From: a virus
DNA: 64,000 bases
Reading direction: 5' to 3' (one strand)
IMG/VR virus record: IMGVR_UViG_3300028840_002431
Span: 172,240 to 236,239 of that record
Part shown: positions 11,695 to 52,265 of the stretch, piece after piece
Layout: each line of letters begins with the position of its first letter
Numbering within the stretch: the stretch's first letter is position 1
The notes under the pieces: generated by a model
Told to the model about the DNA's origin: nothing
Seen by the model: only the letters and a program-made list of their open reading frames with translations
The model's database searches: none
Program-made: the position numbers and the translations under genes

Positions 11695-11879
11695 AAAGCG
11701 ATCTATACGGTGCTTTCGGAATGGGCCTTGGCAGCGGCGGAGCGTTGGGCCTTGGCTTGGGGGCTTTCTTCCACGGAGGCTTCGAGATCGGCCTGATAGG
11801 CATTGCGGTGGGTGGAATTTGTGCCGTTCTGGGCCTCCTGGCTGTCAGTAGTCGGACCGACGGATCGTCTAACCCTTAG
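11691..11879 (+). CDS. glycine-zipper small membrane protein
   Basis: ORF track; GxxxG-rich hydrophobic sequence. Confidence 0.4.
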   Translation: MKSDLYGAFGMGLGSGGALGLGLGAFFHGGFEIGLIGIAVGGICAVLGLLAVSSRTDGSSNP

Positions 11880-11908
11880 ATTCCACACAAACCTGGAGTA
11901 AGAACAGT

Positions 11909-12436
11909 ATGCTCAAGATCACAATCAGCCCAGACAACCTGGAGTTTTCCTACGATCCCGAGTGTCAAAAGCAGGTCCTGGTCCTGAGGGGGCTACCCGG
12001 TTCCGGGAAGAGTTTCATAGCCGACTCGTTCAGGGGCAGAGCGATCCGCAAAAACGACGACCAAACGGTCGTCTGCTCGACCGATGACTTTTTCATGGTC
12101 GATGGTCTCTACCGGTTCGACCCGACTCAGCTAACTGAGGCCCACCACACGTGTTTCCGGAAGTTCACACAGGCGGTAGACAGGGACGTGGAGATCGTCG
12201 TCGTTGACAACACGAACATCTACGCGGCCGAGTTCGCGCCGTACGTCACCTACGCGGCGTCTCGTGAATACGAGGTCAAGATCCTGACCGTCTGGTGCGG
12301 CCTGGAAACGGCCTTCGAGCGTCAGAGCCACAACGTTCCGATCGAGGTCCTGATCAAGATGTACGCGGCACTACTCAAGAACGATGTTGTGCCTCCTTAC
12401 TTCCAGCACGAGGTCTTGTACAACGGGTGGCGTTGA
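11909..12436 (+). CDS. pnk: polynucleotide 5'-hydroxyl kinase (T4 Pnk kinase-domain-like, P-loop)
   Basis: Walker A GLPGSGKS, DNTN Walker B-like, and overall collinearity with the T4 polynucleotide kinase N-terminal domain; class-1 motif TTAGATT 26 nt upstream. Confidence 0.65.
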   Translation: MLKITISPDNLEFSYDPECQKQVLVLRGLPGSGKSFIADSFRGRAIRKNDDQTVVCSTDDFFMVDGLYRFDPTQLTEAHHTCFRKFTQAVDRDVEIVVVDNTNIYAAEFAPYVTYAASREYEVKILTVWCGLETAFERQSHNVPIEVLIKMYAALLKNDVVPPYFQHEVLYNGWR

Positions 12437-12606
12437 CAGCCGCAGTTGACCCATGTATCGTCCGGCTTTCCGCAACCGGTCGGGGGCGCACTCATCAAGG
12501 CCCTGACGAGAGTCTTGGTGCCCGCCATCTTAATCGGAGCGACCCGACAAGACCCGGCCGGTTGCATTAAATCTTAGGAACGGGGGCGGCCGATGGTAGG
12601 TATGGT

Positions 12607-13104
12607 ATGCCCACAGCTAAAGAAGTAGCTTTCGAGATTCATCGGGACGCGATGTACGGCGACCAGCCGTACTCAGTCCACCTGGATGAGGTTGTTACCG
12701 TGATGTCCCGTTACGGTGTCCGCGAGCACGACCTCCTGGACGCCGGTTATCTGCACGACAGCATCGAGGACACGCCGACCACGAAAGAGGACCTGGAGCG
12801 CCTCGTGGGGCCAACAGTGGCCCGGATCGTGGACGCTGTGACCGACGGCAAAGGTAAGAACCGGGAAGAGCGTAAGGAGCGTCCCTATCGTCTTATCCCC
12901 AAGGTCTATGGTGCCCTGACTGTGAAGCTGGCCGACCGCGTCGCGAACGTGGAAGCCACGATCAAGAACGGCAAAACCGGACTGTTCGAGATGTACAAGA
13001 AGGAACAACCCGAGTTCCGGCGTCGGCTTCGTGCCGCTCCTGGAAAAATAGAGTCGTCTCCGGAACGGCGGATGTGGAACCGGCTGGCCGAGCTTCTAGG
13101 CTAA
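12607..13104 (+). CDS. small alarmone hydrolase (Rel/SpoT-type HD domain, Mesh1/SAH-like)
   Basis: QPYSVHLDEV ... AGYLHDSIEDT matches the Rel/SpoT hydrolase signatures (PY..H and LHDxIED). Confidence 0.65.
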   Translation: MPTAKEVAFEIHRDAMYGDQPYSVHLDEVVTVMSRYGVREHDLLDAGYLHDSIEDTPTTKEDLERLVGPTVARIVDAVTDGKGKNREERKERPYRLIPKVYGALTVKLADRVANVEATIKNGKTGLFEMYKKEQPEFRRRLRAAPGKIESSPERRMWNRLAELLG

Positions 13105-13307
13105 CGTCTGACCGGGATTACGTCCTTACCCCGGAACTTGATTCGATACCCTCTGTCGAGTTTGACAGCTTCTTCGATCTCTTCGGGTTCAACGTCAAGA
13201 AGCTCTGCTAATTCCGCAGCGTCGGCGGGGGAGCGTTTCACGGCACGGACGATGTCCTGGACCAGGATGTCAATATCACGTAAGCGGCGGATTGCGTCTT
13301 TGTCCAT
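13101..13307 (-). CDS. hypothetical protein
   Basis: ORF track 68 aa. Confidence 0.35.
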   Translation of the reverse strand: MDKDAIRRLRDIDILVQDIVRAVKRSPADAAELAELLDVEPEEIEEAVKLDRGYRIKFRGKDVIPVRR

Positions 13308-13319
13308 ACCTACGTCGCG

Positions 13320-13361
13320 TATAAAAACAAGCGGGATGCCTTGTGGTTGGCATCCCGCTTG
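13320..13361 (-). terminator. rho-independent terminator (hairpin + T-run on the - strand)
   Basis: Perfect 12-bp stem CAAGCGGGATGC ... GCATCCCGCTTG followed on the - strand by TTTTTAT. Confidence 0.5.
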
Positions 13362-50803: not shown

Positions 50804-51045
50804 CTGATGAGGCCCTTCTTCGCGAGAGAGCGTGCCGCTTTAACATCCGGATGCATGTAGTGTAGAGAAATCTCGCCATGTGTAATGACGGCTGCTATGA
50901 CCTTGAGTTCTTGCTTGGTGATCTTCACGCGAACCTCGGAGTGTGTTTTGTGATCAGGGCCTCGCCCATTTGCCAGCGGGCCAAGAAGAGGTGAGCCTTC
51001 AAGGAAGCGAGCAAGAACCAGCCGCTGGTGTCGAGTAAAAACCAC
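50722..51045 (-). CDS. hypothetical protein (relation to the overlapping 50925..51107 ORF unresolved)
   Basis: ORF track; different frame from the ORF that directly follows the class-1 motif. Confidence 0.3.
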   Translation of the reverse strand: MVFTRHQRLVLARFLEGSPLLGPLANGRGPDHKTHSEVRVKITKQELKVIAAVITHGEISLHYMHPDVKAARSLAKKGLISCPCPEADYEKFKPTRKGIRRMLHGTS

Positions 51046-51107
51046 TCAGGCTCACACCAGATCCCCTTGGTCACGTAGACCCGCCATTTCGGTTCGGCTT
51101 TAGGCAT
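50925..51107 (-). CDS. small ORF directly downstream of a class-1 motif + SD
   Basis: GGGAGGGTAAGGACAAT-ATG context; 60 aa. Confidence 0.3.
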   Translation of the reverse strand: MPKAEPKWRVYVTKGIWCEPEWFLLDTSGWFLLASLKAHLFLARWQMGEALITKHTPRFA

Positions 51108-51160
51108 ATTGTCCTTACCCTCCCTACTACTGACCAGGGCCAGACCTAAGACTTATTTTT
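51108..51160 (-). promoter_or_regulatory. class-1 promoter-like motif (AAAAATAAGTCTTAGGTC)
   Basis: Motif family member. Confidence 0.35.
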
Positions 51161-51610
51161 GAGCGCCTCCCCTATGGATACCGTCAGCTTTGATCGGCTC
51201 TTCTGCCATTGCTCCCAGAACTCGGTTCCAGGGCCTTTGGCTCGTACTGCCTCGATGACCCTTTTACAGTTGGCCATGTCCATCATGAACATGTGGGCCT
51301 GATCCTTGGTCATGCTCATCACGGCCTGGAGCCAGAGGTAGGCTTCCGGCCGTGTGCAATGACCTTGTCGCCAGATTGGATCGAAGGTGTCATGCGCTTT
51401 CTTGCGCCAGCCTTGAAGTTCTCGGGTCCGGGGCTTCCCTCTTGGAGAGCCGTCGTAATTGGCCGGGAGCACGCCCTTGCAGTCCGGGTAATTGGCACAA
51501 CCATAGAACCACCGTTCGAGCCGCCACGACCAGCGTAGCTCCAGGACGCCCTGACACCCTGGTTCGGCGCATTGGAGTCCTGCCACTTCTTTTGTCGGTT
51601 TCCTAGGCAT
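51146..51610 (-). CDS. protein with topoisomerase-type C4 zinc ribbon
   Basis: CAEPGCQGVLELRWS ... FYGCANYPDCKGV resembles the Topo I C-terminal zinc-finger domain. Confidence 0.4.
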   Translation of the reverse strand: MPRKPTKEVAGLQCAEPGCQGVLELRWSWRLERWFYGCANYPDCKGVLPANYDGSPRGKPRTRELQGWRKKAHDTFDPIWRQGHCTRPEAYLWLQAVMSMTKDQAHMFMMDMANCKRVIEAVRAKGPGTEFWEQWQKSRSKLTVSIGEALKNKS

Positions 51611-51772
51611 GGTTAAAAGTGAGGCCCCCTATCGGAGCGAACCCTGGCCGTGGGGGGGAACCGGCCATAGGAACGCGACAGGGGGCCTCGGCCCACCCTT
51701 CAACGGGGACGGGTGGGCACATCTTATATGATTCACAGTAAGATTAATCCTACCTCTCCTCTCGTGCTCTCG

Positions 51773-52222
51773 TCAGGAAATCTCTCCGTCACTGGCCCAC
51801 TCGACCGCGAACACGACAACGGCCTTGCTGCCGTTGATCTCTTCCGCGATCTTGGTGAACGAAGCTTGCACGTCGGCGTACGCCTCGTGGTGGTCCGAAC
51901 CTGAACAGAGGTCGATGGTCTGGCCCGTCTCGATCTCGGCCATGAGTTCCTTGGCCCACTCTTCCAGGGTTTCCTTGCCCAATTCAGCCGGGTCGAAGTT
52001 CTCGACGCAAACGGCCACATTGATGTCTTCGTGGCCCTCGACGACGATGTAGTTGGTACCAGCGTCATACCCACGAGCACCCCAATACTCGTAAGATCCG
52101 ATGCCGTCGTTCTCGACGGAGTAATCGACGCGGGCGGTAGAAAGCGCCTCTTCGAGGTCGCCCAGACCCTCCCAATCGGGGTCATCCATTTCGGGGACTG
52201 AAATAAAAATATCTGTTGCCAT
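51773..52222 (-). CDS. highly acidic hypothetical protein
   Basis: ORF track; class-1-like motif upstream. Confidence 0.45.
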   Translation of the reverse strand: MATDIFISVPEMDDPDWEGLGDLEEALSTARVDYSVENDGIGSYEYWGARGYDAGTNYIVVEGHEDINVAVCVENFDPAELGKETLEEWAKELMAEIETGQTIDLCSGSDHHEAYADVQASFTKIAEEINGSKAVVVFAVEWASDGEIS

Positions 52223-52265
52223 GACTGTACTACGAATCAGGGGAGTCTAATATAAAGATTGTTTT
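52223..52265 (-). promoter_or_regulatory. class-1-like promoter motif variant (AATCTTTATATTAGACT)
   Basis: Motif family member, AT-rich. Confidence 0.3.

Follow-up and report, generated by a model that had tools for sequence, protein, structure and literature searches.

In this work, we analysed a 64,000-nucleotide (nt) stretch of viral DNA (positions 172,240 to 236,239 of the IMG/VR record IMGVR_UViG_3300028840_002431; the window below), in which a recurrent element, termed class 1, precedes genes on both strands. The element is probably a phage-lineage-specific two-block promoter from which, judging by its position and conservation, transcription would start at the A of the ATG, such that many of the mRNAs would be leaderless. 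The motif is new, and the kind of element is known. In full, it consists of AAWWTAA-nn-(T)TTAGATT followed by 15 (sometimes 14) unconserved bases, GTAG or GTAA, six bases, a T and an A.

At up to two mismatches, the 17-mer AATTTAANNTTTAGATT matched the window 8 times against 0.05 expected, and TTAGRTY-N15-GTAR matched 10 times against 0.03. A two-block weight matrix was built from 13 sites, scanned with spacers of 13-17 nt and compared with 100 shuffles; it gave 16 sites at 21-42 bits, while the best of the shuffles reached 20.0. Two weaker candidates, with predicted starts at 8005 and 12607, came in addition to the 16. The matrix clearly showed conserved blocks at -43..-27 and -11..+1, with almost no information in the 15 positions between them (spacer columns of about 0-0.7 bits). 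Columns that had played no part in site selection were conserved as well: A(-37) in 13/13, T(-1) in 11/13 and A(+1) in 12/13. TTAGATT was followed by N15 at 13 sites and by N14 at three, and then by GTAR. Every site lay in the non-coding DNA, which makes up 10% of the window; where a site touches the preceding gene, it does so by the stop codon only. All sites were oriented toward what follows them, be it a gene, a cluster of tRNAs or a structured RNA. Matches on the opposite strand came from the upstream block, which is nearly palindromic and was read there in reverse; they had no GTAG partner. The strict motif gave 0 matches in an exact-pattern scan of IMG/VR and, in the same kind of scan of JGI metagenome contigs, 12 single matches, which is about chance level.

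An earlier note, made from the same DNA, had listed 11 copies of the element. All of them exist where it placed them and face their downstream genes, but five sites had been missed (10500, 14895, 15412 and 37337 on the + strand and 37091 on the - strand). The note had also said that a motif equally frequent in coding DNA and in random orientation would speak against a promoter; in the window, all sites are non-coding and co-oriented. Its proposal of a phage-specific promoter class has good support, in the form of a lineage-specific class, from the placement and orientation of the sites, their statistics and their presence in relatives.

The final A of the motif was the A of an ATG at nine strong sites (14804, 47923, 43970, 13861, 49201, 52222, 11909, 37091 and 10500) and at the weak 12607 candidate; at 45811 the ATG begins at +2, one base past the predicted +1. 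In 9/11 genes, this ATG is the first possible start after an in-frame stop, usually the TAA inside AATTTAA, and independent public gene calls agree with these starts, except for 43985/43970. The start codon is ATG in 11/11 leaderless candidates of the window and in 5/5 of those in related phages, GTG/TTG making up about 15% among all genes. GTAR stands exactly 11 nt before the ATG at nine strong sites and one weak site here, and in five genes of the related phages L106, L107 and L108 described below. Furthermore, the first 30 coding nt of the leaderless candidates were richer in A+C (0.64 vs 0.55, p = 0.018). The 26-nt gap to the ATG, claimed earlier for five cases, holds beyond them (13861, 14804, 47923, 49201, 52222, 11909, 43970 and the new 37091), though it is 25 nt at 10500. 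Of the conserved leader claimed along with it, GTA(G/A) at -11..-8 and (G)GT at -3..-1 stood, whereas the full GGRGTAGACCGGGT is exact only at 14804 and 47923.

Two sites on the - strand scored 41.9 bits each. One lies at 14802..14847 (AATTTAAGTTTTAGATT-N15-GTAGACCGGGT-ATG), with +1 at the A of ATG 14804, and precedes a gene (14370-14804, -) for a 144-amino-acid (aa) ProQ-C-like/DUF7205 protein; this ATG is the first possible start, an in-frame TAA stands 39 nt upstream, and the L106 and L107 orthologues have the same architecture. The other lies at 47921..47966 (AAAATAATCTTTAGATT-N15-GTAGACCGGGT-ATG; +1 = ATG 47923, a 92-aa gene), and here the TAG stop of the upstream gene falls within TTTAGATT. 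Also on the - strand are 43968..44013 (AATTTAAGATTTAGATT-N15-GTAGTAAGGGT-ATG; 39.5 bits), where +1 is ATG 43970, the second in-frame ATG of an open reading frame (ORF) publicly called from 43985, the alternative ATG lying 15 nt upstream within the spacer; 13859..13904 (AATTTAAACTTTAGATT-N15-GTAGACCGTAT-ATG; 36.7 bits; +1 = ATG 13861, a 143-aa gene), where the TAA stop of the upstream gene falls within AATTTAA; and 49199..49244 (AATTTAATCTTTAGATC-N15-GTAGGTCGAGT-ATG; 35.8 bits; +1 = ATG 49201, a 69-aa gene) and 52220..52265 (AAAACAATCTTTATATT-N15-GTAGTACAGTC-ATG; 31.1 bits; +1 = ATG 52222, a 149-aa gene), neither with a Shine-Dalgarno-like sequence. The same strand carries 45809..45855 (TTTACGAGATTTAGATT-N15-GTAGAAGAGGT; 28.7 bits), where A(+1, 45812) leaves a 1-nt leader before ATG 45811 of a gene for a 181-aa protein with a DNA-ligase-like N-terminus (Pfam), and the new site 37089..37134 (TAACATATCCTTATATT-N15-GTAACAAGGGT-ATG; 27.3 bits), with +1 at ATG 37091 of a 78-aa gene called 36855-37091 in public assemblies and a class-2 motif (see below), GGTGTAAC, just upstream. 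On the + strand, the site at 11866..11911 (CGTCTAACCCTTAGATT-N15-GTAAGAACAGT-ATG; 27.3 bits) has +1 at ATG 11909 of an AAA_33 kinase gene (Pfam). The new site at 10458..10502 (+) has a 14-nt spacer and a hybrid -10 slot (GAGTTAAGTCTTAGGTT-N14-GTAGAGACGGT-ATG after GGGTGTAG; 25.5 bits); +1 is ATG 10500 of a 97-aa gene with the same start in public assemblies. The weak candidate at 12564..12609 (+) combines a poor upstream block, ATTAAATCTTAGGAA, with a good GTAGGTATGGT-ATG (+1 = ATG 12607, an HD_4 gene), scoring 14.2-14.5 bits overall and 11.2 bits for the downstream block alone.

At other sites the ATG stands further off. At 43275..43338 (-; AAAATAAATCTTAGATT-N15-GTAGGCCGGGT; 39.6 bits), A(+1, 43295) is followed by TAAGGAGGGAGCGAAAC and ATG 43277, with a Shine-Dalgarno pairing of -12.4 kcal/mol beginning 3 nt past +1; this site heads an operon from 43277 to 40032 that ends at a terminator, 39998-40028. 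At 46166..46224 (-; AATTTAAGTTTTAGGTT-N15-GTAATCCAGGT; 37.2 bits), A(+1, 46181) precedes GGAGGCAAAGAA and ATG 46168, and the Shine-Dalgarno GGAGG runs from +2. At 51105..51159 (-; AAAATAAGTCTTAGGTC-N15-GTAGGGAGGGT; 33.5 bits), a short leader, A(+1, 51116)-AGGACAAT, precedes ATG 51107. The new site at 14852..14909 (+; AATTTAACCTTTGAATT-N15-GTAGTCCAGGA; 25.1 bits), with A(+1, 14895) followed by AGGAGACAATC and ATG 14907, where the gene is publicly called, is divergent from the 14804 site and back to back with it. The weak candidate at 7962..8017 (+; TGAAAGACTCTTAGGTT-N15-GTACACCTAAC; 16.4 bits, in the shuffle range) has G(+1, 8005), then GAGAAGACG and ATG 8015 of a cREC_REC gene. All five leadered sites (genes 43277, 46168, 51107, 14907 and 8015) hold GTAG-N6-(T/A)-A at an unchanged distance from TTAGATT, with a strong Shine-Dalgarno 1-4 nt past +1 (mean -9.6 kcal/mol) and the ATG 9-18 nt past +1.

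Two new class-1-like sites on the + strand, both with a 14-nt spacer, retain GTAG though nothing is translated nearby. One, at 37295..37337 (AGAAAATCTTTTAGGTT-N14-GTAGTAAGTGT-C(+1, 37337); 21.3 bits), lies 35 nt before the tRNA cluster 37372-38373. The other, at 15370..15412 (AAAAAAGTTTTTAGGTT-N14-GTAAGGGGCGT-A(+1, 15412); 22.8 bits), is followed by 212 nt with no + strand ORF, up to gene 15624. As leadered sites and the tRNA-cluster site alike keep the spacing of GTAG to the upstream block, GTAG is, by this evidence of spacing, tied to that block and not to the start codon, and is not a translation signal; the conserved T-A step would behave like a transcription start. The fixed short leader of the earlier note is most likely untranscribed: the ATG stands at the predicted start, and the "leader" would be the spacer, the -10 slot and the discriminator. 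This follows from the leadered and tRNA-cluster sites, which keep the GTAG-TTAGATT distance while the ATG moves or is absent, from the Shine-Dalgarno sequences of leadered sites, which begin immediately after +1, and from the GC-rich upstream block of the related phage L108, which cannot be a -10 element.

As read from the sequence, the two-block spacing is ordinary -35/-10 geometry with a non-canonical -10 sequence. TTTAGA stands at -34..-29 (a 4/6 match to TTGACA), nGTAGn at -12..-7 and T(-1)A(+1) six nt after nGTAGn; TTAGATT-N14/N15-GTAR thus corresponds to 16-17 bp between TTTAGA and nGTAGn. A comparison with the sigma70 bipartite layout found the two conserved blocks and the fixed-length spacer of free sequence (16-17 bp between hexamers). 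The earlier statement that the element has no sigma70 architecture is probably wrong, given that TTTAGATT had been taken as a core lacking a -35 element, but the fixed 15-nt spacer to GTAG gives the -35/-10 geometry.

We propose that the AT-rich block AAWWTAA-nn-TTTAGATT at -43..-27 would act as a -35-type or upstream recognition element, separated by 15 bp (rarely 14 bp) of arbitrary GC-rich sequence from GTAG/GTAA, which would occupy the -10 slot at -11..-8 and be followed by a G-rich six-base discriminator ending in T(-1), with transcription from A(+1). At about half of the sites, the +1 A would be the A of the ATG, yielding a leaderless mRNA translated from its 5'-terminal AUG; the remaining sites would yield either a minimal leader of 9-18 nt, essentially a Shine-Dalgarno sequence, or a tRNA cluster or structured RNA. 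GTAR-N6-Y-R would be the core of a related large-phage family in which the upstream block varies by lineage. Most likely, the element would be read by a bacterial-type RNA polymerase with a non-housekeeping sigma factor, either phage-encoded or modified by a phage factor.

The 144-aa protein of the 14804 gene has many metagenome homologues, by which we examined four relatives. In L106 (76% protein identity, 55% G+C content, GC), TTTAGATY-N15-GTAATATAGAT/GTAATATAAAT-ATG precedes both the orthologous 144-aa gene and the neighbouring kinase gene. The orthologue in L107 (65% identity, 48% GC) is preceded by TTAGATT-N15-GTATTATAGGT-ATG, and the left half of its upstream block lies 2 nt nearer the right half. 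In L108 (62% identity, 64% GC, on a 332-kb contig), the upstream block differs: the form is GGGCTCAA-N16-GTAGT, with the ATG exactly at +1 in two called genes, and 20.7 kb contain 11 copies of GGCTCAR-N16-GTAGT (0.00 expected). A Y(-1)R(+1) step is present in 9/11 copies, and other copies have Shine-Dalgarno leaders that begin at +1. The dense GGGCTCAR-N16-GTAGTRG family (11 copies) occupies 1865-20371 of the L108 locus (ERZ24794647 NODE_41, 332 kb); other L108 genes are for a PAS histidine kinase with a response regulator and for an InPase-domain protein of 1296 aa. The architecture was thus found in three related uncultured phages, in L108 with a different upstream block, which suggests that the GTAR-N6-Y-R core is common to a group of large phages and that the upstream block is lineage-specific.

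A second motif, CG-GTGTAA-TAT (class 2), has no upstream block. GGTGTAR occurred 30 times in the window against 11 expected, and the occurrences fitting the full consensus were mostly intergenic. Class-2 motifs lie at 2068-2080, 2973-2990, 6548-6575, 8332-8345, 9275-9292, 9232-9252(-), 22103-22116, 27288-27300, 30147-30171 (both strands), 38796-38808, 52325-52340, 53743-53756, 57854-57866, 58052-58064, 62179-62199 (both strands) and 62699-62712. Their GTA stands 11-12 nt before the ATG at 2988, 3278, 9290, 62208 and 9232(-), and these genes are, by this distance, probably leaderless too. The motif is also present in L106 and L107. In the class-1 sites of L106, the GTAG slot is filled by the class-2-type GTGTAATAT, and for this reason class 1 and class 2 look like one putative -10-type core with and without an upstream block. 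Bacteria have both -35-dependent and extended -10 promoter classes, which the two classes parallel. One class-2 motif lies upstream of the gene 29218-30099 (-). Its 293-aa product matched a Myb/SANT-like helix-turn-helix domain (E = 3.6e-8) and, weakly, another helix-turn-helix near the N-terminus, and is a candidate phage transcription regulator.

Several observations weigh against the two-block promoter with leaderless products. Its role as a promoter, the start at +1 and the polymerase or factor reading it are what we infer, the position of +1 from sequence alone. A TAnnnT -10 element was not found: positions -12..-7 read nGTAGn, and with TAGnnn as the hexamer, T is the sixth base at 0/13 sites. 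The TAG... register, moreover, lies only 4 nt from +1, below the known start-site ranges, and the nGTAGn register has G, not A, at -11. Neither the 64-kb window nor about 10 kb of its flanks yielded a gene for a sigma factor or an RNA polymerase. In the fourth relative, L004 (58% identity), the orthologue has no motif and a plain Shine-Dalgarno leader. Furthermore, 6/11 "leaderless" genes have a G-rich run (GGGG or GGAG) at -17..-12 that could pair with the anti-Shine-Dalgarno and might act as a distant Shine-Dalgarno on read-through transcripts, and the Shine-Dalgarno pairing energy did not differ between leaderless candidates and other genes (p = 0.43). It was above -4 kcal/mol in 5/11 candidates, the G-rich runs of the other six standing at unusually long spacing.

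A further point of this kind is that the core geometry is identical to that of the AR9 late promoters, AACA-N6-T-A/G, whose last base is the start (PMC5312081). In these promoters of the AR9 non-virion polymerase, as in the class-1 core, a motif of 4 nt occupies -11..-8, and six unconserved bases separate it from T(-1), after which a purine is the start (PMC5312081). The GTAR-N6-T-A(+1) core could accordingly be read by a phage-encoded non-canonical RNA polymerase of the AR9/phiKZ kind, the upstream block being accessory and the transcripts still leaderless, an explanation that we consider unlikely. It would agree with a -10 slot that is not TAnnnT, with the conservation of the core over phages of 48-64% GC and probably different hosts, and with the lack of enrichment of sigma70-consensus promoters in the window (7 vs 5.4 expected). 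However, known jumbo-phage polymerase promoters have no upstream block at a fixed distance, whereas the spacing is strict both here and in L108; in this respect the sites depart from the AR9/phiKZ non-virion promoter type, despite its fitting core. AR9 late promoters differ also in having leaders of 26-491 nt and in needing the phage multisubunit polymerase and uracil-containing DNA (PMC5312081). No polymerase-like gene was found in the window or flanks, and no protein link to phiKZ-like phages was found. A hint of sigma-type factors in this phage group comes, in turn, from L107, one of whose proteins matches Sigma70_r4 twice (E = 1e-8), even if a homologue of this protein was found neither in the window nor on the contigs of the phage under study.

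The same bases can also be parsed with TAGATT as a TAnnnT-type -10 element after an UP-like AT tract. The start would then lie about 7 nt on, leaving a leader of about 19-20 nt in which GTAG...GGT would act at the RNA level, as a signal in translation or as one recognised by a phage RNA-binding protein. We give this parsing a low probability. TAGATT does fit TAnnnT better than anything in the GTAG slot, GGGG/GGAG stands just upstream of GTAG at about half of the sites as a possible distant Shine-Dalgarno, and the virion-polymerase promoters of phiKZ and AR9 have extended AT-rich blocks with the start 6 nt downstream (PMC5312081). Yet the region 5-9 nt after TAGATT shows neither a Y-R start signature nor conservation, and the fixed GTAG-TTAGATT distance persists at the tRNA-cluster site and where a leader supplies a Shine-Dalgarno of its own. 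In addition, L108 holds at the homologous position GGGCTCAA, impossible as a -10 element, and the L106 GTAG slot holds the consensus-like GTGTAATAT. Nor is GTAG complementary to the 16S rRNA tail. RNAalifold predicted 0 pairs on 12 sites, that is, no conserved or consensus RNA structure was found, and this leaves the translation operator offered as an alternative in the earlier note unsupported; the hypothesis of an RNA structure was rejected on this result. The sites do not fit a jumbo-phage virion polymerase early promoter: the AT-rich block is present, but the 5-9 nt downstream are unconserved and the L108 block is GC-rich. Nor do they fit a T7-like single-subunit polymerase promoter, a contiguous element of about 17-23 bp from -17 to +6, since -26..-12 is unconserved here.

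With even less probability, the AT-rich block would be an operator for a dimeric phage activator or repressor, set before a weak GTAG-N6-TA core promoter as a temporal switch. The block is indeed an imperfect 7-3-7 inverted repeat, AAWWTAA-nnn-TTAGATT, centred near -35 and also detected on the opposite strand; the GTA core exists without the block, as in class-2 sites, and the helix-turn-helix protein of 29218-30099 is encoded in the window. The two halves are, however, far from equal, the right carrying about 1.7 bits per position and the left about 0.9 (13-site matrix), and the 2-nt shift of the left half in L107 is unlike a rigid dimer site.

The last alternative, an archaeal virus whose leaderless genes would follow a TATA box of the archaeal type (TTTAGATT, similar to TTTAWATA) after about 27-34 nt, is hardly credible. 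In its favour, archaeal promoters stand at a comparable distance from the ATG and are found with leaderless genes, and the window encodes PTH2, an archaeal/eukaryotic-type enzyme. By the features of its sequence, the host is bacterial rather than archaeal, because both tRNA-Pro genes have the bacterial C1:G72 pair and an encoded CCA, one window protein carries the bacterial prepilin N-methylation motif, and the proteome is not acidic (median isoelectric point, pI, 9.1). The class-2 element stands at -10, not at -26, and L108 has GGGCTCAA in the place of the "TATA box". A haloarchaeal or other archaeal virus with a TATA box was ruled out by the pI, the tRNA identity elements, the pilin motif and the class-2 position; the block itself spans -34..-27.

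Among known systems, the two-block promoter with a start on the ATG has its nearest parallels in the following. Promoters of the Thermus phage phiYS40 reportedly give leaderless mRNAs (Sevostyanova et al. 2007). In Deinococcus-Thermus, an ORF-adjacent -10 element yields leaderless mRNA (PMC12340547), and phage transcripts have been reported to be often leaderless (PMC5312081). As proposed for our window, the element of Deinococcus-Thermus and phiYS40 stands a few fixed bases before the start codon, the start is the AUG, a Shine-Dalgarno is not required, and leaderless and Shine-Dalgarno-led genes share one genome (PMC12340547). There, a canonical TANNNT stands 6-7 bp before the ORF, usually with no -35 element, whereas here GTAG/GTAA has no conserved final T, lies 1-2 nt nearer the ATG and is joined to a strong, strictly spaced upstream block. 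Promoters of extracytoplasmic function (ECF) sigma factors are like class 1 in their short GTA-containing -10 core, in a -35 block set off from it by a strict spacer (about 16 nt) and in the lack of TAnnnT. An example is the Bacillus subtilis sigma-W (ECF, group 4) promoter, TGAAAC-N16-CGTA. The class-1 -35 block has no ECF AAC signature, and an ECF sigma gene was not found in the window. Among activator- or appropriator-dependent phage promoters, the T4 middle promoters differ from class-1 sites in that their -10 is still the canonical sigma70 TAnnnT and their mRNAs have leaders. They resemble these sites in the phage-specific upstream block at a fixed distance from the -10 (the MotA box near -30, replacing the -35), which defines a gene class (PMC2988021); no MotA/AsiA-like genes were identified here, unlike in T4.

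The source of the window is an uncultured megaphage, a bacteriophage of about 416 kb, because exact copies of window proteins occur on metagenome contigs of up to 416,380 bp in several samples, no DNA similarity of the window to any deposited or cultured phage was found, and protein similarity is sparse, being limited to the SPFH proteins of crAss-like and Vibrio phages and to two uncultured huge-phage records. In one of these, LR756500.1 (24% GC), motif scans returned only AT-rich noise; in the other, LR745208.1 (55% GC), the conserved upstream block was not seen in 40 kb. The window has 55% GC and is 90% coding, with many tightly packed small ORFs. The full-length contigs are ENA ERZ27256783 k141_562290 (416,380 bp) and ERZ27256798 k141_2638518 (416,275 bp), and the source samples include JGI 3300018080 and 3300017991 and SRR6963591 and SRR6963352; JGI 3300018080, in which window genes occur, belongs to a set of metagenomes that one paper credits to D. 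Valentine. A host search in genome contigs gave a sole match, one "uncultured bacterium" metagenome-assembled genome.

Several features of the transcription units deserve mention. The hairpin at 39998-40028, with 12 pairs (9 G-C) and then a T run, lies between the convergent genes 38842-39576 (+) and 40032-41564 (-) and is probably a bidirectional terminator closing the operon from the 43295 site. The two largest proteins of a class-1 operon had no match among solved structures. The 212-nt RNA 15412-15623 (+) has a minimum free energy of -84.2 kcal/mol (z = -5.2 vs shuffles) and no match in an Rfam search; its possible roles are those of a structured non-coding RNA and of a long regulatory 5' untranslated region belonging to gene 15624-15929. 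The tRNA genes number 10-11 (at least 10 in the window) and are clustered at 37372-38373, 52557-52929, 53810-53887 and 57281-57355. Unusual lengths among them are 81 nt for Glu, 84 nt for His and 99 nt for an Rfam tRNA match at 37750-37848, which ARAGORN missed. A publicly called 337-aa ORF, 37416-38429, overlaps the first cluster and is probably spurious.

The window also carries cargo unusual for a phage: PTH2, a peptidyl-tRNA hydrolase (38435-38869), an RRM-domain protein (34670-35095), a pilin-like protein with the N-methylation motif (24602-24979), a RelA/SpoT-type hydrolase-like HD_4 protein (12607-13104) and a papain-family peptidase (23020-23787). A C-terminal motif, x-L-W-D-H-L-(R/K)-x-x-stop (DNA CTCTGGGACCACCT), is common to 15 otherwise dissimilar small proteins, encoded at 164-349, 1552-1740, 1746-2045, 2096-2548, 3816-4046, 4046-4270, 4272-4472, 4469-4744, 5221-5442, 5443-5619, 5870-6541, 7434-7694, 7694-7975, 59147-59467 and 62208-62642; the tail, also present in L106, may be a sorting, packaging or interaction tag. 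In one 416-kb assembly (ERZ27256783), the region of about 320-14,300 is inverted relative to the window and two other assemblies (loci L097 and L102 vs L096 and L101). The breakpoints (about 270-320 and about 14285-14456) fall inside the class-1-driven genes 13898-14368 and 14370-14804, yielding chimeric ORFs of 139 and 179 aa, and the junctions carry short inverted duplications; the inversion is either a real polymorphism or an assembly artefact.

Transcription in very large uncultured phages is essentially unstudied, since none of the group is in culture. A predictable start site allows start codons to be corrected, for example 43970 over 43985, and the promoter class marks transcription units, including those of tRNAs and of a possible non-coding RNA. 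It can also guide a search of the full genome for the sigma factor or polymerase that reads it. If the leaderless reading is true, a megaphage lineage with a non-canonical -10 element would join Deinococcus-Thermus, actinobacteria and a Thermus phage, in which systematic leaderless expression is known so far. More speculatively, and with the balance of probability against it, uncultured large phages (about 330-420 kb, 48-64% GC) might carry their own promoter-specificity factor, a divergent sigma factor or polymerase that reads GTAR(-11..-8) instead of TAnnnT together with lineage-specific blocks and starts deliberately on the AUG, making a class of genes leaderless. If this were so, a phage factor placing the start on the AUG could sustain phage translation when the phage or the host alters Shine-Dalgarno-dependent initiation.

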